Source: an uncultured virus (IMG/VR IMGVR_UViG_3300014826_000003) (Duplodnaviria; Heunggongvirae; Uroviricota; Caudoviricetes). From it: a stretch of 22,187 bases of DNA. Below the pieces are notes generated by a model, which worked only from the letters and a program-made list of their open reading frames with translations, was not told the origin of the DNA and made no database searches. The stretch is from the IMG/VR virus record IMGVR_UViG_3300014826_000003. The stretch is one strand, 5' to 3'. Shown piece by piece: positions 1,044 to 15,011 of this stretch. Within the stretch, counting starts at the first letter, position 1; each line of letters begins with the position of its first letter. The position numbers and the translations under genes are program-made.

Positions 1044-2529
1044 GATAGTTATTAAGAACAGCAACGAATGCGAGCTTGATATACCTCAAAAGTATGCAGT
1101 TAAGCTTTATGATGAACTTAGTATCAGGCATCCTAATGCGTTTTACTTACGTAGGACGATGAAGAACTGGGATGGTAAAGTTCATTTCATAGGTAAGTAT
1201 GGTAATTTCAAGATAGGTCTTCTACCTCGAGTTTATAAGATGTTACAATCTTATGGTCTTAAAGTTAAGGTAGAGGACCGTCGTCGTGAAATAAAGATGC
1301 CTAAGAAGGTTGTAACTAAGGTAGGTAACTACAAACTCCGACCAGAACAGGTAGATGCACTTAAGGCTATCATAGGTTACAAGGTTGGTGGAGTACCTTA
1401 CCAAGTTGGTGTTATAGATGCTACCGTTAACTTCGGTAAGAGTTTGTTGATGTCGGCTCTGTATTATACTTATGGTAAGAAACTTAAGACTCTACTGATT
1501 ACCCAAGATGCTGACTGGTTTAACCAAGCTAAGGATGAATTTAAGGAGTATGTACCTGATGAGAAGGTAACATTTATTCAAGGCAGTAAAGTATACGACT
1601 GGGGTAATTTTAGTATCGGTATGATACAATCTATCTCAAGGAATATAAAAGCCTATCAGAAAGAGCTTACAATGATTGATATGGTCCTGGTTGATGAGGC
1701 TGACTTAGCAGGCAGTAAGATGTACCAATCAGTTCTTACTCATCTGTATAATACTCGAGTAAGGTTAGGTCTATCTGGTACTATCTATATGTCTGGTCTT
1801 AAGAAGGACCTACTTAAGAATATGAACCTTGAATCATTCTTTGGTTTGAGGATGTATGAATTTAGGTTAGCTGACTCCATTAAAGCGGGATATTCAACCA
1901 AGACTATTGTAAAGCTTATTGATACCGATCCTTGGTACAAAGGTTATGTGAACACTACAGGCAATGATTACAAGGAGGTATATGACCGAGTTATTACCAA
2001 TGCCCAAGTAGGTTATGAGCTTATTCATGACCGGCTTAGGTTTAATCTTAAGTATGGCAGAACACCGGCACTCATAGTATGCAAGCACATAGCTCACTGT
2101 GAAAATCTTTATAATTATTTGAAGCGGGTACTAGATAAAGATCTAAACATTGCCTATGTTCACGTTAATACTGCAGATAAGCAACGTAGAAATATAATGC
2201 AAAGGTTTAGGTCTGGAGATATAGATATATTGGTATCTACTACGATCATTGCTCGAGGTAAAAACTTCCCGAAGCTTAGGTACATGATCAATGCTGCTGG
2301 TATGAACTCTCAGGAAAAGTCAATCCAGTTCCTTGGTCGTTTGGTAAGAACCTTTGAAGGTAAAGATAGGGTTTACCTAGATGATATCCAGTATCAAGGA
2401 GATTATCTTAGTAGGCATTCTAAGAGAAGAGCTAGATATTATAAAGATGAAGATCTGAAGGTAATCAGCATGAAGAAGCTCTGGAATAAGTATGAGAAGC
2501 ACTATCCTTTAGATTACCTACCTTTCTAA
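1036..2529 (+). CDS. Superfamily 2 DNA helicase (UvsW/DEAD-like)
   Basis: Q motif LRPEQ, variant Walker A ATVNFGKS, LVDEAD, motif III LSGT, motif V STTIIARGKNFP, motif VI QFLGRLVR. Confidence 0.92.
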   Translation: MSRIVIKNSNECELDIPQKYAVKLYDELSIRHPNAFYLRRTMKNWDGKVHFIGKYGNFKIGLLPRVYKMLQSYGLKVKVEDRRREIKMPKKVVTKVGNYKLRPEQVDALKAIIGYKVGGVPYQVGVIDATVNFGKSLLMSALYYTYGKKLKTLLITQDADWFNQAKDEFKEYVPDEKVTFIQGSKVYDWGNFSIGMIQSISRNIKAYQKELTMIDMVLVDEADLAGSKMYQSVLTHLYNTRVRLGLSGTIYMSGLKKDLLKNMNLESFFGLRMYEFRLADSIKAGYSTKTIVKLIDTDPWYKGYVNTTGNDYKEVYDRVITNAQVGYELIHDRLRFNLKYGRTPALIVCKHIAHCENLYNYLKRVLDKDLNIAYVHVNTADKQRRNIMQRFRSGDIDILVSTTIIARGKNFPKLRYMINAAGMNSQEKSIQFLGRLVRTFEGKDRVYLDDIQYQGDYLSRHSKRRARYYKDEDLKVISMKKLWNKYEKHYPLDYLPF

Positions 2530-2551
2530 GGAGGTTAAGGTTAAGACTAGA

Positions 2552-2636
2552 AGTATATATCTTTTACCTGTAAGGGAATAAGATATATTACTAAGGGTAA
2601 AAGGGCATTAACTCATATATGCAAGTATGTACATAC
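2552..2636. promoter_or_regulatory. Structured intergenic region with inverted repeats and a 12-bp palindrome
   Basis: ATATATCTT (2555-2563) pairs with AAGATATAT (2580-2588). CTTTTACC (2561-2568) pairs with GGTAAAAG (2596-2603). Perfect palindrome GTATGTACATAC at 2625-2636. Confidence 0.4.
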
Positions 2637-2719
2637 GTATAAAGACTCAGATCTCTTACGAGAATGTTCTAGGGTCAACTATATTCATACATAACGTTCA
2701 TATTTAAATCACAGTAATA

Positions 2720-3100
2720 ATGGCTAAGAAGAAAAAGAATTTACCGGACCTTTCAAAACAAGATCCATTAGTACCTATTGATCTATCTTCAATAGGGGCT
2801 TCTAATGACCCTTGCTTTGGTAAGGGCTATGACTTAAGTACACGAGAGTGTAAACAATGTGGAGACTCCGAGCTATGTGCATTAAAGATGTCCCAGGTAC
2901 TTGGTAAAACTCGTAAAGAGTTAGAAAAAGAAAATAAGTACAAGGATCTGGATGTCTTGGAGGATGTAGATGGAATCAAGAAGTTCATGCGAAGGCTTAA
3001 GAGAAAGGGCGAGAAGAGAAGAGCTATCGTTCTTCAAGCAGCAGAGAAGTTCGAGGTTCCAACTACTATGTTGCGTAAGATATATAAGGAATTAAAATAA
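2720..3100 (+). CDS. Hypothetical basic protein with four Cys (putative metal binding)
   Basis: DPCFGKGYDLSTRECKQCGDSELC followed by a Lys/Arg-rich helical C-terminus. Confidence 0.75.
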   Translation: MAKKKKNLPDLSKQDPLVPIDLSSIGASNDPCFGKGYDLSTRECKQCGDSELCALKMSQVLGKTRKELEKENKYKDLDVLEDVDGIKKFMRRLKRKGEKRRAIVLQAAEKFEVPTTMLRKIYKELK

Positions 3101-3381
3101 TGAAACGTATTGAGAAGATTATAAGATTAGCTATGCCTCATATCTGGTATCTGTTCAGGATCTTTCTGAATGATCAGTACTACCTGTTACAGAATACCGA
3201 TATCATGGCAGAACACTTTGGTAGAGGAGAAAAGGATGTGAAGGAATTCTTTAAGATGATGAATGCCTTTTTGGAAGAGAATCAGATTGAGGACTTCCAT
3301 CCATTGGTATACTACCCAAAGATGAAATATCAAGATTTATTGGACCAAATAACAAATTATTACAATGGCAAAAAGATTTAG
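3100..3381 (+). CDS. Hypothetical protein (93 aa)
   Basis: TAATG stop/start coupling with the upstream gene; overlaps the dUTPase start. Confidence 0.7.
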   Translation: MKRIEKIIRLAMPHIWYLFRIFLNDQYYLLQNTDIMAEHFGRGEKDVKEFFKMMNAFLEENQIEDFHPLVYYPKMKYQDLLDQITNYYNGKKI

Positions 3382-3943
3382 ATTTACAAAGGTACGAGAG
3401 GTTAAGACACCTTTCCGTGCACATGAAGGTGATGCTGGGTTGGATTTCTTTATGCCCACAGATCTTACATTGGCTGATATCTTCAAGGCTAATGCAGCAG
3501 CTAAGGATATCTCCCATACTGCTGGTCAAGTAAACCCAGGTCAGTATACTGTAGTAATGTCTGACGGTAAGATTCAGCAACTTATCTTAGGACCTCTTAC
3601 AAGGATCCTCATCCCATCCGGTATTCGTTGTCTGCTGGAGCCTGTAGATTCAATGATGCAGGTCAATAACAAGTCAGGCCGTTCTACTAAGAAAGGTTTA
3701 CTCTTTACAGCTCAGGTATGTGATTCACCTTATACAGGAGAATATCACTTGGGAGTATTTAATACCAGTTCACAGCCTCAGACTCTGGTTGCAGGTGAGC
3801 CAGTAGTACAGCTAGTACACGTTCCAATTATTCTTGATGATGAACTCATCGAGTTATCTAACGATGACTATGAGAAAGAGGCAGAGAATTGGGGAACACG
3901 TGGAACTGATGGTTTAGGATCTGGCGATAAAAAGGAAGCGTAA
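3365..3943 (+). CDS. dut: Trimeric (beta-fold) dUTPase
   Basis: All five motifs present: AGLD (I), KSG (II), VCDSPYTGE (III), VVQLV (IV), RGTDGLGSG (V). Confidence 0.92.
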   Translation: MAKRFRFTKVREVKTPFRAHEGDAGLDFFMPTDLTLADIFKANAAAKDISHTAGQVNPGQYTVVMSDGKIQQLILGPLTRILIPSGIRCLLEPVDSMMQVNNKSGRSTKKGLLFTAQVCDSPYTGEYHLGVFNTSSQPQTLVAGEPVVQLVHVPIILDDELIELSNDDYEKEAENWGTRGTDGLGSGDKKEA

Positions 3944-3945
3944 TC

Positions 3946-4827
3946 ATGGATATCAGAAATATAAAAGAGGTACCACCAGTAGTAGAAGATGGTAAGTATC
4001 TCGAAATGATCTACGAACTTCAGAAGAAGCTGATGGCTGGTTACATAGGGAAGATCGAAAAGAATCTACCCAACTACCCAATCAGTATTAACTCAGAGAA
4101 AGGTCAACTAGTTCTCAAGGATTTCTCAGCCCGTGTAATAGAGGAAACATGCGAAGGTTATGAATCTAATACTGAAGCTTTGAAATTAGCTCAGGCTTAT
4201 GGTTGGAACATACAGGCTTTGCCTGATGATAAGTTTGATATGTTACTCAACCATCTTCAGAACTCCAATGAGGAACAGGCTGATGCTTTTGCTTTCTTCG
4301 TTGAGTTGATGCTATACGCCAATATTCAACCTGAAGACATCTACTCTTATGTATTGGATAAGTACCTGGATAACCGGAAGTTCAGTAGTATTACTCAGGT
4401 TAATCTTGGTACTCTGTTTGGTGTTGGCCATTACTTTCATGAGAAAGATGGCTATATCTTGGATCAGATGAATCTTTGGCCATTGCTTACCGAAGATCAT
4501 CTGAAAGCTTTCGATAAGGACGTAGAACATGTACTCAGCTACATTCCAGGTTTTAGAACTTCTAACGAGGAACTTCATCGTAACGAGGATCACATGCTTT
4601 GGAAGGTTGCTTACCATTTGAACATAGGTCGTAACTTCCTAAAGAATAAGACCTGGAAACAGACTCAAGAACTTACTGATACAGTACGTTATCAGGAGCA
4701 GGTAGTACTTGCTTTTATTAACTACTGCGGTTATCTTGCAGCTATGGGTTTTAAGCCTGAGACTTTCTATGTTCTCTTCTATAAGAAACATGCCGTAAAT
4801 ATCTTCAGACAGCACAGTCATTACTAA
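3946..4827 (+). CDS. All-alpha NTP pyrophosphatase (MazG/dimeric dUTPase/T4 gp56 dCTPase-like), apparently internally duplicated
   Basis: Acidic helices IEETCE and EEQAD, plus KNKTWKQ and the C-terminal KKHAVNIFRQHSHY typical of dimeric dUTPase/dCTPase. Confidence 0.75.
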   Translation: MDIRNIKEVPPVVEDGKYLEMIYELQKKLMAGYIGKIEKNLPNYPISINSEKGQLVLKDFSARVIEETCEGYESNTEALKLAQAYGWNIQALPDDKFDMLLNHLQNSNEEQADAFAFFVELMLYANIQPEDIYSYVLDKYLDNRKFSSITQVNLGTLFGVGHYFHEKDGYILDQMNLWPLLTEDHLKAFDKDVEHVLSYIPGFRTSNEELHRNEDHMLWKVAYHLNIGRNFLKNKTWKQTQELTDTVRYQEQVVLAFINYCGYLAAMGFKPETFYVLFYKKHAVNIFRQHSHY

Positions 4828-4844
4828 TTCAAATTACTAGAAAT

Positions 4845-5570
4845 ATGCCAACATTAGATTCCATTGATGCCGAGGTACAGGAACTTAAACAGAGAATGTC
4901 TTCTGTAGAGAGTACTAACACCTCACAAGGTACAGCAATCCAAAACTTGCAGGTAATACAGGGTCAGCATACTACTACATTGAACTCTCATGGTACTCGT
5001 CTTGATAACCATGATGATCAGTTAGCTGACCATAACACTCGTCTCCATACTCTTGAAGACAGTACTCTAAAGATAACCTTTACTCGAGAAGGTAGAATGC
5101 CTATCATGAACGAGAAAGGTTTGATTGAGGTATATATGCCAGATAAACTTCTGATTGAGGATTTCCGTAAGGTAAACGATCAGCTTAACATCGCTCAGGA
5201 CTTCAACTGGTTCCGTAAGATATCCAATATCGTTGGGGCTGGTAAAGTATGTTTCGACTTTGATCGTGATGATGGTATCAAATCCATTATCTTAGGTCAG
5301 TATACTCGTATAGTAATACCTACTGGCTTAAAGATTACCGAGCTTACTCCTGAGAAGTCAACGCTCAAGGCAGTGAATGACGATAAGATGGTAACCGAGC
5401 AAGGCCTTTGCTTTGGTATAGAGGTAGTACAGGCTGATGAAAACAAGGAAGTACTCCTTTCGATCTGTAACTACACAAATCACACGGTACACCTCTATCG
5501 AGGTAAGTTGATCTGTTCACTGGCTCATCTGTTCCAGTATAAGACTAACCCTGTAATAACCACTGAGTAA
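4845..5570 (+). CDS. Coiled-coil plus degenerate dUTPase-fold protein (pseudo-dUTPase)
   Basis: The N-terminal ~70 aa are heptad repeats. The C-terminal domain is collinear with the dUTPase at 3365 (IILGQYTRIVIPTG vs LILGPLTRILIPSG; TEQGLCF vs TKKGLLF) but has lost the catalytic motifs. Confidence 0.7.
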   Translation: MPTLDSIDAEVQELKQRMSSVESTNTSQGTAIQNLQVIQGQHTTTLNSHGTRLDNHDDQLADHNTRLHTLEDSTLKITFTREGRMPIMNEKGLIEVYMPDKLLIEDFRKVNDQLNIAQDFNWFRKISNIVGAGKVCFDFDRDDGIKSIILGQYTRIVIPTGLKITELTPEKSTLKAVNDDKMVTEQGLCFGIEVVQADENKEVLLSICNYTNHTVHLYRGKLICSLAHLFQYKTNPVITTE

Positions 5571-5571
5571 G

Positions 5572-6480
5572 ATGTCAGGTTGGAACAAAAAGTTAGAAGG
5601 TTTAGAGTTCAACGGGGAGGAAACTTGTCATTCACTCGAGTTTGCAACATCACAGGAGGCTTGGGAGAAACTGAATGAAGGTTTCCTCCGTTTGGACCCT
5701 ATACTTTTTGAGAAAGGGGCTACTGCTAATTCAGGCGTAGCTATTGTTTACAATGTATTTGTAAAGATTCGTAAAGCTTGGGTGGATCCAGACTTTAATT
5801 ATGGTCGTTGTTTTAACTACAAAGAGACTAAATGGACTACTCTGCTGAATAACTACTTAGATTTTACACAGCTTGACTTGATAAAGTCCCAACTGCGTAT
5901 GAAATCTAGGTCCTATCAGAATTATAACTTGAGTTATGTCTTCAACAATTCTCACAACAATGGTAAGCAATGTTTGCTCGCTGCTACATTTAGTAAGAGG
6001 TTCCAAGAAGATGTACCAGTAGTTACAATGATACTCAGATCCTCTGAGATTACCAAGAGACTTATCTTTGACTTCCTACTCATACAGCGTATGTCAGAGT
6101 ACATATACGGAAAAGAGCAGACCGTTCAGATCAATCTCTTTGCAACTCAGATGTATGGAAACGTTGAAACACTTCTTATGTACGGAGCCTATAAACCTAT
6201 TAAGAAGGTCCTCAAAGGAACTGATAAGAAGTCGGCTTGGATTCAACGTGTTAAAGAGATTAACGACAAGTTCACAAATGGGACTGAGAAAGACTTCTCC
6301 TCATACAAGGTGTTCTTAAGATGTTTCAAGGTTTTACGACCCGATATCTATACCTATGAGCCACTACTGGCTAGGGACTTGGTTATCGAGGACGATGATA
6401 TCGAATACCCAGAGGACTGTATCTCTTACTCACAGAGAAGGAGGTATAAGAAGAAGTTGATGGCTAGAAAGAAGTCCTAA
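5572..6480 (+). CDS. Divergent thymidylate-synthase-fold protein
   Basis: N-terminal helix SQEAWEKL, KQCLL at the catalytic Cys position, ILRSSEITKRLIFD equivalent to TS QRSxD...N/D. Lacks the SLHxY motif. Confidence 0.65.
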   Translation: MSGWNKKLEGLEFNGEETCHSLEFATSQEAWEKLNEGFLRLDPILFEKGATANSGVAIVYNVFVKIRKAWVDPDFNYGRCFNYKETKWTTLLNNYLDFTQLDLIKSQLRMKSRSYQNYNLSYVFNNSHNNGKQCLLAATFSKRFQEDVPVVTMILRSSEITKRLIFDFLLIQRMSEYIYGKEQTVQINLFATQMYGNVETLLMYGAYKPIKKVLKGTDKKSAWIQRVKEINDKFTNGTEKDFSSYKVFLRCFKVLRPDIYTYEPLLARDLVIEDDDIEYPEDCISYSQRRRYKKKLMARKKS

Positions 6481-6536
6481 ACTCTAAAGTTGTAACTGGT
6501 TCTATAGGATATTGCTTTTATAAAAATATATTAACT

Positions 6537-7307
6537 ATGAGATTTTACGAAAACGCTTATGAATTGATGTCCGAAATGGGCAGAGATCTATGGGAGATGG
6601 GGATCCTGAATAAACCCAAAACCTATCAGAATAAGGTAATCGAAGGAAATGAAGACTTCATTACTAAAGAAGAGATCTGTAAACAGTACTGCTTAACCGG
6701 TCTACCCGACCCTGAGATGTTGTTCATCTTTACTAAAGCTAAGGATTGGGCAGAGGCTGAGTTTACTGAAAGAATTTCTGGTAAACAGGTCAACCCAGGT
6801 AAAGCTTGGGAACTTCGAAAGGATATGTGGGAAGAATTCCTGGTTAAGGATATGTTTGCCACTGGTCCTGGTTTCGATTATACCTATCCTGAGAGAATTA
6901 ACCAGGAGGTTACATGGAAAGGTAATCCAAAACGAATTACTATACTCGAGGCTTTGATCGAACTACTCAAGCAGGATCATGATACTCGTAAAGCTGTTCT
7001 TCCTATCTTTACTGATAGAGACTGTAACAACTACGACGGTAGTGCTCGTATACCTTGTTCTATGTACTACGATTTCCTAATCAGAGATTGTGGTCAAGGT
7101 CCCCAGGTTAACATCGTGTACCACCAAAGAAGTTCAGATTTTGTTGGTCACTTTGGAGACGATGTATACCTTGCTTGGTGTATGATGGAGTACGTAGCTG
7201 AGAAGGTTGGAGTAAAGGCTGGTTTCCTTTACCATACAATAGATTCTCTACATTGTTACCAGAGAGACTGGCACTATTTAAAAACGTCAGTAGATGACAT
7301 TAAGTAG
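6537..7307 (+). CDS. Thymidylate synthase/dCMP hydroxymethylase-family enzyme
   Basis: YTYPER, DTRKAV, catalytic IPC, YHQRSSDFVGHFGDD, HTIDSLHCY. Asp at the position equivalent to E. coli TS Asn177. Confidence 0.88.
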   Translation: MRFYENAYELMSEMGRDLWEMGILNKPKTYQNKVIEGNEDFITKEEICKQYCLTGLPDPEMLFIFTKAKDWAEAEFTERISGKQVNPGKAWELRKDMWEEFLVKDMFATGPGFDYTYPERINQEVTWKGNPKRITILEALIELLKQDHDTRKAVLPIFTDRDCNNYDGSARIPCSMYYDFLIRDCGQGPQVNIVYHQRSSDFVGHFGDDVYLAWCMMEYVAEKVGVKAGFLYHTIDSLHCYQRDWHYLKTSVDDIK

Positions 7308-7322
7308 TTAGTAGTTTGTTTT

Positions 7323-7361
7323 AGGCTGTTACTCTTCAAGGTTGGTGGGTAACAGCCTTTT
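7323..7361 (+). terminator. Terminator-like hairpin between the TS-fold gene and the DNA polymerase
   Basis: AGGCTGTTACTC (7323-7334) pairs with GGGTAACAGCCT (7347-7358); 12-nt loop, then a short T run. Confidence 0.6.
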
Positions 7362-7374
7362 AATCTGTTTAGAA

Positions 7375-9681
7375 ATGCGAACAAAGTATCATATCATAAA
7401 GAACTATCAAGAGCTGGACCAATTGATGGATGCTTGTATTAAGACTGGTTATGCTACAGTTGACTTTGAGACTAATGCACAACCACTCCATACAAAGCTT
7501 TTCAAACCAACTATCTTATCAGTAACCTTTCAACCAGGTTTTGGATGTTCAATACCTCTCGACCATCCGGAAACTAAGGATCATACTGATAGAGGTTGGA
7601 GATGGCAAACAGCTCTTAAGAGGTTCGGTAGAAAAGTCATAGAGAATCCAAAAGTAACTAAAGGAGCTTGGAATGCTAAGTTTGACTTTCAGATATTCAT
7701 GTTATACCATATCTACTATCGAGGTACGTTATTAGATGGTATGCTTGCTAAGTATATTCTTAATGAGGAGAGACCTCATGATCTGAAAGAAATGGTTAGA
7801 AGGTATATCCCAGAGGCGGCAGATTATGAATCCGATAAGGGCTTCGATAAGATACCTTGGGATAAGAAACCTCTTGATCTTCTCTGTAAATATGGATGTC
7901 AGGATACCGACTATACTCATAGGTTGATCATCTTCTTCGAGAAGAAGCTTATTGATTGCGGTCTGTATAGTTACTATAGGAACTTCACGATGTGTTGTTC
8001 AAGGGTACTTCAATCGGTAGAGTTTACTGGGTTATACTTGGATAAGAACTTTAACAGTAAGCTTTTGGAAGAGTATAAACCTAAGATTGATAAGGCTCGG
8101 GAAATTTGCTTATCTTCTCCGAAAGTACAAAAGGTAGAAAAAACTTTAAATCAGGCAAGGATAGACAAATATCTAGAAAAACTTTACCAAGAACTAGATG
8201 ATTTGGATGAAAATGATCCAAAAGATGCTAGAAAGATTGCTACTCGTAGGAATAAGATATCTAATATCAAAGCAGGTATCTTCACTACTAAAACTGAGAG
8301 AGAACTATGCAGACCGATCAATCTTGGTAGTCCAGTAGATTTACCTCAGTTGATGTATCTACACCCAAAAGGGTTCAAATTCCCTATCATTAAGTATATC
8401 GTCGATAAGAAAACCAAACAAGATACAGATAAGCCGAGTACTGATGAGGATACGCTGAAAGAACTTCGACTTAAGTATAAGGATCCTAATAATCCTAAAG
8501 CTGTCTTCTTGGATAACCTGTTAGAGTTACGAGGTTTGGAGAAGATGTATAAGACTTATATCCTTGGTTGGTCAGAAAAAGTCCAGGATGATAGTAGGTT
8601 ACACGGTAGGTATAATATACACGGAACCGACTCTCAACGATTCTCTTCTGCTGATCCAAATATGCAGCAGATACCAAAGACTACTGTAGACCCAAACATC
8701 AAGAAACAACTCATAGCTCCAAAAGGTCAGTTATATCTGGTATTTGACTACTCACAGGCTGAGTTAAGAATCATGGCTCACTTATCTGGTGATGAGACTT
8801 ATCTCAATGCTTTCAGAAATGGTGAAGATCCTCACTTAGCTATTGCTGCTAAGAAGTATGGAGTTAGTTATGCTGAAGCACTAGCTATTCAAGATGACGA
8901 TAACCATCCAGATCATAAACTGTGGAAGATCCGAAGGAAGCAAGCTAAACAACTTGCTTTCGGTCTTATCTATGGTATTGGTCCTGGACTACTTGCTGTA
9001 AAACTATCTGATCCTAAAGCTGGTATTATCGTAACTAAGGAAGAGGCTAAGCAACAGATGGATGAATACTTCCAGGAACATCCAAAGTTACAAACCTTCA
9101 AGGCTAAACAGGAAAGGTTCTTAAGGAAACATGGTTACTTAGTATCTCTCTTCGGAGCTAAGAGAAGGTTACCTCAGATATATTCTGATGATCAGCAGGA
9201 TGTAGCTTATGCTATCCGACTTGGTCTAAACTTCCCATGTCAATCTGCTGCAAGTTGTATGACAGCTTTTGGTTCAGTACTTCTATACTGGGCTATGCAC
9301 CAAGGTATATTCCCACTTATGAAGGAAGTAGCAACTGTACATGATGCTATCTACATGAACACAGACCCTCGTTGGATAAATACTTGGACTGTGTATAACT
9401 TCTGGGAAATACTACGTAATCCAAGTACCAAGAAATACTTCGGTTTCCAGATTAAGGATGTAGATATGGATATGGACTTTACTATCGGTAGGTCTATGGC
9501 TGAAGAATTACCTTTCATACCTGGGTACGATTACAATAAGATGTTAGACCCAAACTTCTCGGTTGAAGAATATCTTGAGGAACATAAGAAGTACAAAGGT
9601 ATTCATATCAAAGATTTCCCAAAACATTTCGGTAAACAGATTAAGCAATATGAAAAAGATTTTAAGAAGTGGCACTCGTAA
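7375..9681 (+). CDS. polA: Family A DNA polymerase with 3'-5' exonuclease domain
   Basis: ExoI DFET, ExoII NAKFD, ExoIII YGCQD; motif A DYSQAELR, motif B RKQAKQLAFGLIYG, motif C TVHDA. Start moved to ATG 7375 because the track's TTG at 7342 lies inside the hairpin. Confidence 0.95.
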   Translation: MRTKYHIIKNYQELDQLMDACIKTGYATVDFETNAQPLHTKLFKPTILSVTFQPGFGCSIPLDHPETKDHTDRGWRWQTALKRFGRKVIENPKVTKGAWNAKFDFQIFMLYHIYYRGTLLDGMLAKYILNEERPHDLKEMVRRYIPEAADYESDKGFDKIPWDKKPLDLLCKYGCQDTDYTHRLIIFFEKKLIDCGLYSYYRNFTMCCSRVLQSVEFTGLYLDKNFNSKLLEEYKPKIDKAREICLSSPKVQKVEKTLNQARIDKYLEKLYQELDDLDENDPKDARKIATRRNKISNIKAGIFTTKTERELCRPINLGSPVDLPQLMYLHPKGFKFPIIKYIVDKKTKQDTDKPSTDEDTLKELRLKYKDPNNPKAVFLDNLLELRGLEKMYKTYILGWSEKVQDDSRLHGRYNIHGTDSQRFSSADPNMQQIPKTTVDPNIKKQLIAPKGQLYLVFDYSQAELRIMAHLSGDETYLNAFRNGEDPHLAIAAKKYGVSYAEALAIQDDDNHPDHKLWKIRRKQAKQLAFGLIYGIGPGLLAVKLSDPKAGIIVTKEEAKQQMDEYFQEHPKLQTFKAKQERFLRKHGYLVSLFGAKRRLPQIYSDDQQDVAYAIRLGLNFPCQSAASCMTAFGSVLLYWAMHQGIFPLMKEVATVHDAIYMNTDPRWINTWTVYNFWEILRNPSTKKYFGFQIKDVDMDMDFTIGRSMAEELPFIPGYDYNKMLDPNFSVEEYLEEHKKYKGIHIKDFPKHFGKQIKQYEKDFKKWHS

Positions 9682-13361: not shown

Positions 13362-14283
13362 GGAACAGAAATCCTATCTACTTATAGATGGTGAAGGTCT
13401 GTTACACCAATCCTTTCATAAGTTCTCTAATCTTATGAGTAGGAAGGCTGTACCAACTGGAGCAATCTTCGGATTCTTTAAATCACTTCACCATTATATG
13501 TATAGGTTTCAGTGTAACGATGTATATGTGGTTTTTGATAATGGCCATTCTAAACATCGTGATAGTTTACTGCCTACCTACAAGGAGCATCGTAAGAGGG
13601 TTGATATTGATTATGAATCCTTACAGGCTCAGAAGAAAAAGATTATGGCAGTTTGCAGGATGCTAAGAATTAAATATATCTTCGATAAAGAAAAATCTTG
13701 TAATTATGAAGGTGATGACTTCTTGGCATACCTAACTCTTAAATACTTACCCCGGAAAAGTAAGATTGTAATTGTTACTGCTGATAAGGACTTCAACCAA
13801 TTACTTAGAGGCCAGACAGTAAAGATCTTCAATCCTCGTAAGGATCAGTTGATATTTGAATCCAACTGTAAGACTATCTATGGTTACAAATCTTCTGAGA
13901 CTGTAGACTGGCTTTCACTGATTGGAGATACTTCAGATGATATTCCTGGGTATAAGGGTATAGGAGAGAAGAAGGCTAGGCAATTCTTAGATACATATGG
14001 TTCAATAGAGGCTTACTTAGTCCAGGATCAATGTCTATCTGACGATAAGGGTCATACTAAGATGTTGGAGGTTTATAACCGTAACAAACAACTGATTGAT
14101 CTGAAGTGGTATGTAAATAATATTAAGCTTGATAAGCTTCCTCTTAAAGACTACAAGGATTCAGTGATCCAAGAGAAGAAATTAAAGAAATTCTCAGACG
14201 AACACAACCTTGATTCGTTCAATACTGATATATTCAAAAGAACTTTTATAGAACAACTAGAAGGATGGAAAACAAACGACTAA
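13330..14283 (+). CDS. 5'-3' exonuclease/flap endonuclease (PolI N-terminal/T4 RNase H-like)
   Basis: LLIDG, VVFD, YKEHR, EGDD, TADKDFNQL, LIGDTSDDIPGYKGIGEKKA (H3TH). Confidence 0.92.
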   Translation: MKKKTKKKTNKEQKSYLLIDGEGLLHQSFHKFSNLMSRKAVPTGAIFGFFKSLHHYMYRFQCNDVYVVFDNGHSKHRDSLLPTYKEHRKRVDIDYESLQAQKKKIMAVCRMLRIKYIFDKEKSCNYEGDDFLAYLTLKYLPRKSKIVIVTADKDFNQLLRGQTVKIFNPRKDQLIFESNCKTIYGYKSSETVDWLSLIGDTSDDIPGYKGIGEKKARQFLDTYGSIEAYLVQDQCLSDDKGHTKMLEVYNRNKQLIDLKWYVNNIKLDKLPLKDYKDSVIQEKKLKKFSDEHNLDSFNTDIFKRTFIEQLEGWKTND

Positions 14284-15011
14284 ACATTATGTTTGCTGGC
14301 GCCAGTGGTGTTGGTAAAACAACTTCTGCTAAAGCTGTAGAAGACAGTTCATGTACGAATTGGACTCCAGATGATGCAGAGTTCTCTATACCTTTTGTAT
14401 CTGGTTCTGTATCTGATCTTCTACCTAAAACTAAAGACATGCCCCATGCTGACATGTTAGCAAGAGATCCTAAAGATCTGTATATGGAAGATTATCAGAT
14501 ACTTAATCTGAGACAGAAGTTATTTAGAGAACAGATTGAGAAAAGTGGTAACTTCGTATCAGACCGGTCTTTCTTAGATTCGGCTGCTTACTTCTTATAT
14601 AAGCAAGCAGATAAGATACCGGCTTGTGAGGTAGAAGCTTTCTTGGGTCTCTGTAAGCAGTTAACTAATACTTACTGTACTCACCTGATACTATTCGATT
14701 TCAATGTAGATATGCTACACGAGTGGAACACTGAAGATAACGGTAAACGTATCAGGAGTAACTACTTCCAGATGGAGATCACTACTATCATGAAGATGGT
14801 CCTTGATATATGGGGTATAACTTGTTTAGGTTTCCCTATCAATAGATTAGCTGGTGGAGGTTGGTTTAAACAAGATAACCTCCTGGACTATGGAGCAGAG
14901 AAATATCTTATCTCAAGTATCTATGGTCAAACTAAGGTACTACTCTGTAAAGAGGTAAATAGAGAAATACGTAACAAACTTATTTGGCAGTTTATACATG
15001 GCAAAATCTAA
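14265..15011 (+). CDS. P-loop deoxynucleoside monophosphate kinase-like protein
   Basis: N-terminal GASGVGKTT and FVSDRSFLDSAAY (the DR motif of TMK/AAA_28-like kinases). Confidence 0.75.
   Translation: MENKRLNIMFAGASGVGKTTSAKAVEDSSCTNWTPDDAEFSIPFVSGSVSDLLPKTKDMPHADMLARDPKDLYMEDYQILNLRQKLFREQIEKSGNFVSDRSFLDSAAYFLYKQADKIPACEVEAFLGLCKQLTNTYCTHLILFDFNVDMLHEWNTEDNGKRIRSNYFQMEITTIMKMVLDIWGITCLGFPINRLAGGGWFKQDNLLDYGAEKYLISSIYGQTKVLLCKEVNREIRNKLIWQFIHGKI

Follow-up and report, generated by a model that had tools for sequence, protein, structure and literature searches.

The locus and its dUTPase-like gene

The window analyzed here is the whole 22,187-nucleotide stretch of the uncultured virus record IMGVR_UViG_3300014826_000003 (IMG/VR; Duplodnaviria, Heunggongvirae, Uroviricota, Caudoviricetes), and the gene in question (the target) is an open reading frame (ORF) that encodes a dUTPase-related protein carried on an N-terminal coiled coil. 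The ORF is real, and its exact span of 4845..5570 on the + strand and its product length of 241 amino acids (aa) were confirmed. Its product has homologs in six clusters (50-98% identity), each of 240-246 aa and with the common start MPTLD or MATLD. The intergenic gaps around it measure 17 nt upstream and 1 nt downstream. The parts of the target and the neighboring dUTPase gene are as follows, with the basis of each assignment in brackets.

4845..5570 (+): target ORF, putatively inactive dUTPase paralog with an N-terminal coiled coil, 241 aa (ORF list)
4845..5057 (+): coiled-coil stalk, residues 1-71, predicted to be parallel and three-stranded, ~10 heptads (heptad register, AlphaFold2 [AF2] helix at residues 4-71, trimer model)
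4968..5033 (+): His ladder, His42, 49, 56 and 63 at four consecutive d (core) positions (heptad register)
5040..5057 (+): R66-L-H-T-L-E71, R-hxxhE trimerization motif at the junction of stalk and knob (register, A5 alignment)
5058..5567 (+): dUTPase-fold domain without catalytic motifs, residues 72-241 (AF2, Foldseek, motif columns)
5142..5288 (+): insert after motif I, residues 100-148, candidate binding surface, holding W122, I126, N128, G133, F137 and D138
3365..3943 (+): active trimeric dUTPase, paralog of the target, with all five motifs (Pfam, PHROG and PDB matches)

Descent from dUTPase and fold

The product of 3365..3943 matched PF00692 (E = 6.2e-07, over the Pfam cut-off), phrog_135 (E = 3.8e-13) and 30 PDB dUTPase sequences at E ≤ 0.01. 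Between this enzyme and the target, BLASTP gave 50.8 bits and E = 1e-12 (27% identity over 157 columns), and residues 75-229 of the target aligned collinearly with residues 5-153 of the enzyme, which bears out the homology between the two neighbors proposed in an initial annotation made from the letters alone. The long insert after motif I that it had ascribed to both proteins is present in each; in the active dUTPase it comprises residues 35-69 (~35 aa), lies directly after motif I and is absent from Chlorella virus dUTPase. The target itself had no PF00692 match at E ≤ 1 and no match to the dut or dCTP-deaminase models of NCBIfam, and PF00692 was matched by three of 10 family members, with a best E of 0.003 that lies below the cut-off, so that no member passes. 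A set of 50,697 phage records gave no tblastn match to the target or to P0007 (a relative from a sister cluster). A profile of the C-terminal domain (C-domain) was searched against 1.84 billion representative proteins (threshold E ≤ 0.001) and retrieved 33 proteins, namely nine of the inactive type with a coiled coil (two of them fragments) and 24 dUTPase relatives, most with full motifs and many with the insert at the same place. An alignment of 39 rows (13 inactive proteins and 26 active dUTPases) was used for modeling and for the comparisons below.

AF2 modeling of the C-domain (residues 71-241) with the 39-row alignment gave a predicted local distance difference test score (pLDDT) of 86.2 and a predicted template modeling score (pTM) of 0.81. 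In a Foldseek search of the model against the PDB, all 30 of the matches listed were trimeric dUTPases (best E = 6.4e-06; template modeling [TM] score by target 0.61-0.82), with 155 matches at E ≤ 0.001, and the top matches in the viral-structure library BFVD were likewise dUTPases, so that the structure search found the fold that the initial annotation had anticipated. In the ESM Atlas, the best feature match (0.76) was to a retroviral protease cluster and below the lead threshold, and the structural rows gave TM scores of <0.5 by query to dUTPase clusters. The C-terminal domain of the target belongs to the dUTPase superfamily by descent and by fold.

Loss of catalytic motifs and shift of constraint

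Each of the motifs that make up the dUTPase active site is altered in the target: AGLD reads GLIE in motif I, NKSG reads NDDK in motif II, DSPYTGE reads QADENKE in motif III, and the Gln of motif IV is a Ser. The Gly-rich C-terminal arm of motif V (R-G-x-x-G-F-G-S-T) is absent in all 13 inactive rows, the target included, and the decay that had been described for the target alone extends to 13 of 13 family members. Motif columns were counted over 23 active rows (the defective P0020, P0024 and P0027 were dropped) and 12 inactive rows (P0001, a 98% copy, was dropped). All 23 active rows keep G93 and D95 (motif I), D196, Y199 and E202 (motif III) and Q225 (motif IV), and the K, S and G of motif II are each found in 22 of them. 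At the same columns the 12 inactive rows have an entropy of 2.0-3.3 bits or are gapped (metal-site Asp of motif I, 3.25 bits; motif II with its phosphate-binding Ser, 2.1-2.4; catalytic D196, 3.0; Q225, 2.46; sugar-stacking Y199, mostly gapped), with the exception of E202, which 10 of the 12 keep. Lacking every catalytic feature by which dUTPase enzymes are recognized, the target family appears to be catalytically inactive.

Residues P86, P99, P159, N209, G187 and L188 are kept by the active and inactive groups alike and are probably structural. A further set is invariant in the inactive family only (N111, W122, I126, N128, G133, F137, D138, G151 and Y232), most of it within the insert, and K125 and V135 are found in 11 of the 12 inactive rows. 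The insert region is gapped or variable in active dUTPases and conserved in the inactive rows, and judged from these columns the constraint on the family has moved from the catalytic motifs to the insert after motif I. In the AF2 model the insert (residues 100-148) forms a helix and a β-hairpin, and none of the confident contacts between subunits in the trimer model described below involves it.

Coiled-coil stalk and trimer model

The ~10 His-rich heptads noted in the initial annotation hold up. Residues 4-74 form ten unbroken heptads in one register (a positions, LVMNIQLLLL; d positions, ILVQLHHHHL), with the His ladder occupying consecutive d positions; 13 of the 20 a and d positions are hydrophobic, and the remainder are N, Q or H. 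H42, H56 and H63 are invariant in seven close members, and among the ladder residues only H63 is invariant in the wider family alignment A5 (10 rows); core d-position His number four to six in close relatives and one to three in distant ones. Four to six layers of three His in the core of the stalk could make assembly metal- or pH-dependent. The last heptad, R66(g)-L67(a)-H68-T69-L70(d)-E71(e), fits the register of the R-hxxhE trimerization motif defined in PMC3653964, and all 10 rows of A5 keep both R66 and E71. Within the family the stalk can be as short as 71 residues or as long as 100-108. A profile search of the PDB aligned residues 5-81 to TRAF3, in its trimeric coiled coil (E = 5.2e-05), and to EibD (E = 0.0025); we read these matches as convergence of trimeric coiled coils and not as homology. 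A repeat at the DNA level, reported as a 42-nt echo, is also present (4995-5017 versus 5037-5059; 23 nt at 74% identity), and it only mirrors the 14-residue periodicity of the peptide.

When three full-length copies were modeled from the 39-row alignment, the median ipSAE (interaction prediction score from aligned errors) was 0.86 (runs of 0.87, 0.85 and 0.86) and the best of three controls scored 0.00; contact agreement between runs was at least 87%, and partner pLDDT at least 79. The mark of the complex-prediction tool is reached by 20 of 30 proteins solved as one-chain pairs and by one of 23 solved as single chains, counts that hold only roughly here given the use of our own alignment and of three copies. 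The tightest predicted contacts join the same residue of different chains (32:32, 35:35, 42:42, 49:49, 56:56, 63:63 and 230:230), those in the coil at expected errors of 0.4-0.5 Å, and such same-residue contacts indicate a parallel, in-register coil on the three-fold axis of the model. Also at the subunit interfaces are the C-terminal strand (residues 229-241) and the regions that once held motifs I, II and III; with residues 90-94, 177-180 and 189-196 at the interface, the model preserves the inter-subunit cleft of the old active site as a contact region. The target is therefore predicted by the model to be a homotrimer with a stalk of ~10 nm and a dUTPase-like knob. Of the trimeric stalk-and-knob protein that had been proposed at the outset, the architecture stands as a prediction (from the heptad register, the R-hxxhE motif and the trimer score), and its placement on the virion is disfavored by the location of the gene.

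Evolutionary history and selection

A maximum-likelihood tree built from the 39 domains placed all 13 inactive proteins on one side of a single branch (support 100/99), and the split between active and inactive proteins was present in 100% of 200 bootstrap trees; the tree is unrooted and does not decide whether the inactive clade nests within the active ones. The active dUTPase of the window pairs with that of locus L003 (100/98) and not with its own neighbor. The tree does exclude a recent duplication of the neighboring gene and points to an old one; the local duplication envisaged in the initial annotation is thus not upheld as a recent event.

The gene has been kept under purifying selection since, as indicated by low ratios of nonsynonymous to synonymous substitution rates (dN/dS), the absence of internal stops and an excess of synonymous changes. 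The dN/dS was 0.056 and 0.050 for the window versus L001 and L002, respectively, 0.026 for L001 versus L002, and 0.11 for the most divergent pair among 27 P0007-type loci, none of which (0 of 27) has an internal stop. Variant codons of the P0007 type were synonymous or nonsynonymous at 58:9 in the C-domain and 24:23 in the coil, and the knob is held more tightly than the stalk.

Gene order and the pyrimidine cassette

The target belongs to a run of co-directional early genes whose members, apart from the two dUTPase paralogs, are the following.

1036-2529: helicase, in the co-directional early gene run
3946..4827 (+): MazG-like / all-alpha nucleoside triphosphate (NTP) pyrophosphohydrolase, cassette member (phrog_12184, E = 3.2e-14; PF08761, E = 5.5e-04, below cut-off)
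5572..6480 (+): 302-aa protein without assigned fold (phrog_34294), cassette member, starting 1 nt past the target stop
6537..7307 (+): thymidylate synthase (TS)-superfamily enzyme (TS or pyrimidine hydroxymethylase), cassette member (PF00303, E = 2.8e-11)
7342..9681 (+): DNA polymerase I (PolA), downstream end of the block (phrog_17, E = 1.4e-101)

In PDB searches the TS-like product matched thymidylate synthases (E = 1.1e-08) and the CMP 5-hydroxymethylase MilA (E = 1.6e-07). Downstream of PolA lie genes for a single-stranded DNA-binding protein, a UvsX-like recombinase, an exonuclease, a P-loop protein (14265-15011, with a weak thymidylate-kinase match), SbcCD-like proteins and RusA. The dUTPase, the MazG-like protein and the TS-superfamily enzyme (3365-7307) occur in one window with this P-loop protein, and these genes look like a toolkit for a non-canonical pyrimidine in phage DNA. 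Pathways of the T4, SPO1 and ViI types provide parallels for such a toolkit.

L003, whose inactive paralog is 58% identical to the target, has the gene order of the window, and in L006, L033, L036 and L037 (30-39% identical) the genes run in the order dUTPase, inactive paralog, MazG-like protein, phrog_34294 protein, TS-like enzyme and PolA. The inactive paralog lies within the same nucleotide/replication cassette in six of six lineages (the window and these five loci), and in four of the six it is directly downstream of the dUTPase. Identity to the window copy is 61-82% for the helicase, 64-69% for PolA, 64-74% for the TS-like enzyme and 40-57% for the dUTPase; within the cassette, conservation is highest for the phrog_34294 protein (66-76%) and lowest for the inactive dUTPase (30-57%), with the MazG-like protein (39-62%) the second most diverged.

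A scan for promoters and terminators found no terminator-like site on the + strand in 2400-7500, and promoter-like sites were fewer than in shuffled sequences, the scan models being ones that do not cover Bacteroidota promoters. In the metatranscriptome run X1, three short contigs from a relative (90-96% identity) correspond to 3997-4199, 5469-5867 and 6827-7272, the second of which spans the target stop and the start of the next gene; carry-over of DNA into this RNA library is possible.

Comparison with known systems

The closest comparison is with the insert-bearing phage dUTPases (PF00692, EC 3.6.1.23), which have in common with the target their descent, jelly-roll fold and insert position and, as far as the models predict, a trimer with the C-terminal strand at the interface. 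Unlike these active enzymes, the target family has lost the catalytic motifs, has added an N-terminal coiled coil of 71-108 residues and has conserved the insert. Catalysis-independent functions are already on record for such enzymes. According to PMC10815766, the dUTPase of phage T5 has a six-residue surface loop (residues 30-35) between β2 and β3, just past the motif I strand, that is needed for phage development, and its catalytically dead mutants S68A and D85N still complement; staphylococcal phage dUTPases are described as binding the Stl repressor of Staphylococcus aureus pathogenicity islands (SaPIs) through an extra motif (motif VI). In both cases the additional function resides in a surface insertion, and to judge from sequence and strand numbering the T5 insertion would occupy the same topological place as the insert of the target. 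The T5 and staphylococcal proteins remain enzymes, however, whereas in the target family the function would reside in a separate, inactive paralog.

Other dUTPase-derived proteins have become inactive and act by protein binding, as reported in PMC8961515 for adenovirus E4-ORF1 and the herpesvirus dUTPase-related proteins (for example, human cytomegalovirus UL31 and Kaposi's sarcoma-associated herpesvirus ORF11). In contrast to the target, these belong to eukaryotic viruses and lack a coiled-coil stalk. The target has its nearest relatives among phage dUTPases and not among these proteins, so that a change of this kind has taken place independently in its family. In architecture the target resembles the TRAF adaptors, in which a parallel trimeric coiled coil ending in R-hxxhE leads straight into a β-sandwich knob, and the TRAF3 coil alignment (E = 5.2e-05) includes the His at core positions; the knob of TRAF adaptors is a MATH/TRAF-C domain, however, while that of the target has a dUTPase fold, and only the coil aligns. 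A trimeric coiled-coil shaft is also found in the P22 gp26 tail needle and T4 fibritin, in keeping with weak PHROG matches confined to the coil, but the target differs from both in the fold of its knob and in the location of its gene in a nucleotide/replication block.

Proposed role and alternatives

We favor, at about even confidence, the reading that the target is a non-catalytic homotrimeric pseudo-dUTPase with a binding role, its partner perhaps lying inside the cassette. Such a protein would go back to a single, ancient origin among the insert-bearing dUTPases of this phage group and would have been kept by purifying selection within the early pyrimidine/replication block of the phage, the non-enzymatic "second function" of phage dUTPases having been given to a gene of its own. 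The stalk would trimerize and space the knob, and the conserved insert after motif I, shown three times on the knob, would bind the partner, as suggested by the insert now carrying the constraint of the family. Synteny favors a partner from the cassette, the first guesses being one or more of the dUTPase, the MazG-like protein, the phrog_34294 protein and the TS-like enzyme, and the outcome would be a scaffold or regulator of phage pyrimidine-nucleotide synthesis. A bolder form of the idea, which we consider rather unlikely, is that the second function was so important that a gut-phage lineage split off an enzyme-free gene for it, yielding a stalked trimeric ligand whose insert engages one specific partner, either as a hub in a complex for a non-canonical pyrimidine or, at a dUTPase sensor of the host or a satellite, as a decoy.

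Several observations weigh against the favored reading. AF2 with only seven close homologs gave a poor domain model (pLDDT 53.2), and the fold obtained with the larger alignment may lean on the 26 active dUTPases among its 39 rows, although the homology to dUTPase, which comes from sequence comparison, stands on its own independently of the fold model. The success of the trimer model may in part reflect likeness to solved dUTPase trimers, given that such structures exist and that the alignment includes the same 26 active enzymes. L004, a GenBank relative with a PolA 64% identical to that of the window, keeps the cassette but is without the inactive paralog, so that the paralog is dispensable for the chemistry of the cassette; in its place stands the second of two tandem phrog_34294 paralogs (L004 4121-5888; 329 and 261 aa). 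Finally, no gene of the block has diverged further from its window copy than the inactive paralog, and fast divergence would also fit a host-facing protein.

The last two points lead to the main rival of a cassette partner, namely that the target is a host-directed decoy or inhibitor whose knob mimics a trimer of the dUTPase or dCTP-deaminase type, either occupying a dUTPase sensor of the host or a satellite (as with the SaPI Stl repressors) or blocking a host enzyme of the same fold. We judge it unlikely. The protein diverges fastest in its block, its stalk varies in length over the range given above, as is often seen in proteins at the host interface, the gene is an accessory one (absent from L004), and the Stl literature describes dUTPase surfaces as targets of sensing. 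Against this, PADLOC returned only coiled-coil noise (LmuB, JetC and PbeC) and no defense model of the dCTP-deaminase type, variation within populations is strongly purifying and not diversifying, and placement within the phage's own nucleotide cassette in six of six lineages fits an internal partner at least as well. Retained nucleotide binding, whether to sense or to sequester dUTP or a modified pyrimidine nucleotide, or a new catalysis through D138, N128 and N111, seems improbable. The trimer model keeps the inter-subunit cleft of the old active site as a contact region, N178, E202 and N209 are retained, and the cassette context suggests unusual pyrimidine chemistry; but variability within the family is greatest at the uracil, deoxyribose, phosphate and Mg columns, where indels occur as well, a pattern that also disfavors the nucleotide sponge entertained in the initial annotation, motif V is missing from all 13 rows, and D138 as the sole invariant acidic residue across the wide family is a thin basis for new catalysis.

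We give very little credence to mixed trimers with the active dUTPase, by which the target would retune the activity or specificity of the enzyme. The two genes are adjacent in four of six lineages, and fold and insert position are common to both proteins, yet the paralogs are just 27% identical, the C-terminal strand motif of the inactive protein (F-x-Y-x-T-x-P) differs from that of the enzyme, and the ten-heptad stalk with its invariant R-hxxhE motif, which the enzyme lacks, should drive the formation of homotrimers. Equally hard to credit is a virion fiber or appendage made of a trimeric coiled-coil shaft with a distal knob. The architecture is similar to that of trimeric fibers, and weak matches to tail needle, adhesin and minor tail PHROGs were recorded (E = 6.8e-04 to 0.053), but these are confined to the coiled coil, and in six of six lineages the gene lies among nucleotide-metabolism genes upstream of PolA and not in a structural block, a location that counts against the virion appendage suggested earlier. 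If the target is indeed a pseudo-dUTPase with a binding role, the family separates an enzymatic from a non-enzymatic role, with an active enzyme beside a conserved inactive copy. Several phage dUTPases (T5, staphylococcal phages) have an unexplained function apart from catalysis, and here the non-enzymatic role would be open to direct study without confounding catalysis.

Phage group and annotation

The contigs that carry family members are mostly 83-88 kb long, and the PolA of the window is 64% identical to those of two human-fecal phage records. PMC8008677 describes a candidate family, "Flandersviridae," with colinear genomes (median 85.2 kb) that encode PolA, hosts among Bacteroides and Parabacteroides as assigned by CRISPR spacers, abundance in the human gut and, in some members, an insertion of ispD and licD in the replication module. 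In L004 the interval between the TS-like gene and PolA (7275-8895) holds genes for an IspD-like nucleotidyltransferase and a LicD-like protein, as in some "Flandersviridae," and the phage of the window probably belongs to this group. Given their location inside a nucleotide/replication block, the IspD-like and LicD-like proteins of L004 may alternatively have DNA or nucleotides, and not the cell wall, as their substrates.

The protein is common, the P0007-type sister cluster comprising 5361 sequences, on contigs of 83-86 kb. Among 40 members of the P0007 cluster inspected, five were named ("MAG: dUTPase [Bacteriophage sp.]" twice and "hypothetical protein" three times), and one member of the P0009 cluster was named "dUTPase/DNA-binding transcriptional MerR regulator." Existing annotation has caught the homology to dUTPase, but as the name of an enzyme. 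Taken to denote an enzyme, "dUTPase" is probably incorrect for the family and would misdirect the metabolic interpretation of these genomes; the MerR part of the P0009 name is probably an artefact of the coiled coil. A search of the open-access literature found no description of an inactive phage dUTPase on a coiled coil, and the main text of PMC8008677 contains no occurrence of "dUTPase" or "thymidylate," though its additional files may annotate the gene.

Other observations in the block

Two small proteins are encoded between the helicase and dUTPase genes in the window. Both the window (2720-3100) and L004 (2225-2626) encode, between helicase and dUTPase, a small basic protein whose conserved cysteine cluster (C-x-G...C-K-x-C-G-D-S-E-L-C) may be a zinc ribbon. 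In the MazG-like protein (3946-4827), known pyrophosphohydrolase families match the last ~70 residues only, the first ~220 being without a family match. The 302-aa phrog_34294 protein had no Pfam, NCBIfam or PDB sequence match; it was considered as a degenerate paralog of the TS fold and rejected as such (BLASTP E = 0.16, no TS in the PDB profile search, and an hhalign probability of 0.3%).

L033 alone has an inserted gene, for an HNH endonuclease (8959-9459; phrog_59, E = 7.1e-29), that separates its MazG-like gene from the phrog_34294 gene. P0016 (90 aa) joins the first ~25 residues of a P0007-type protein straight to the last ~65 and is either an internal-deletion variant or an assembly artefact. 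The PolA of L004 (9016-12294) has 1092 aa versus 779 aa in the window, and the tblastn match is split around an insertion of ~310 residues that, by eye, looks intein- or homing-endonuclease-like.

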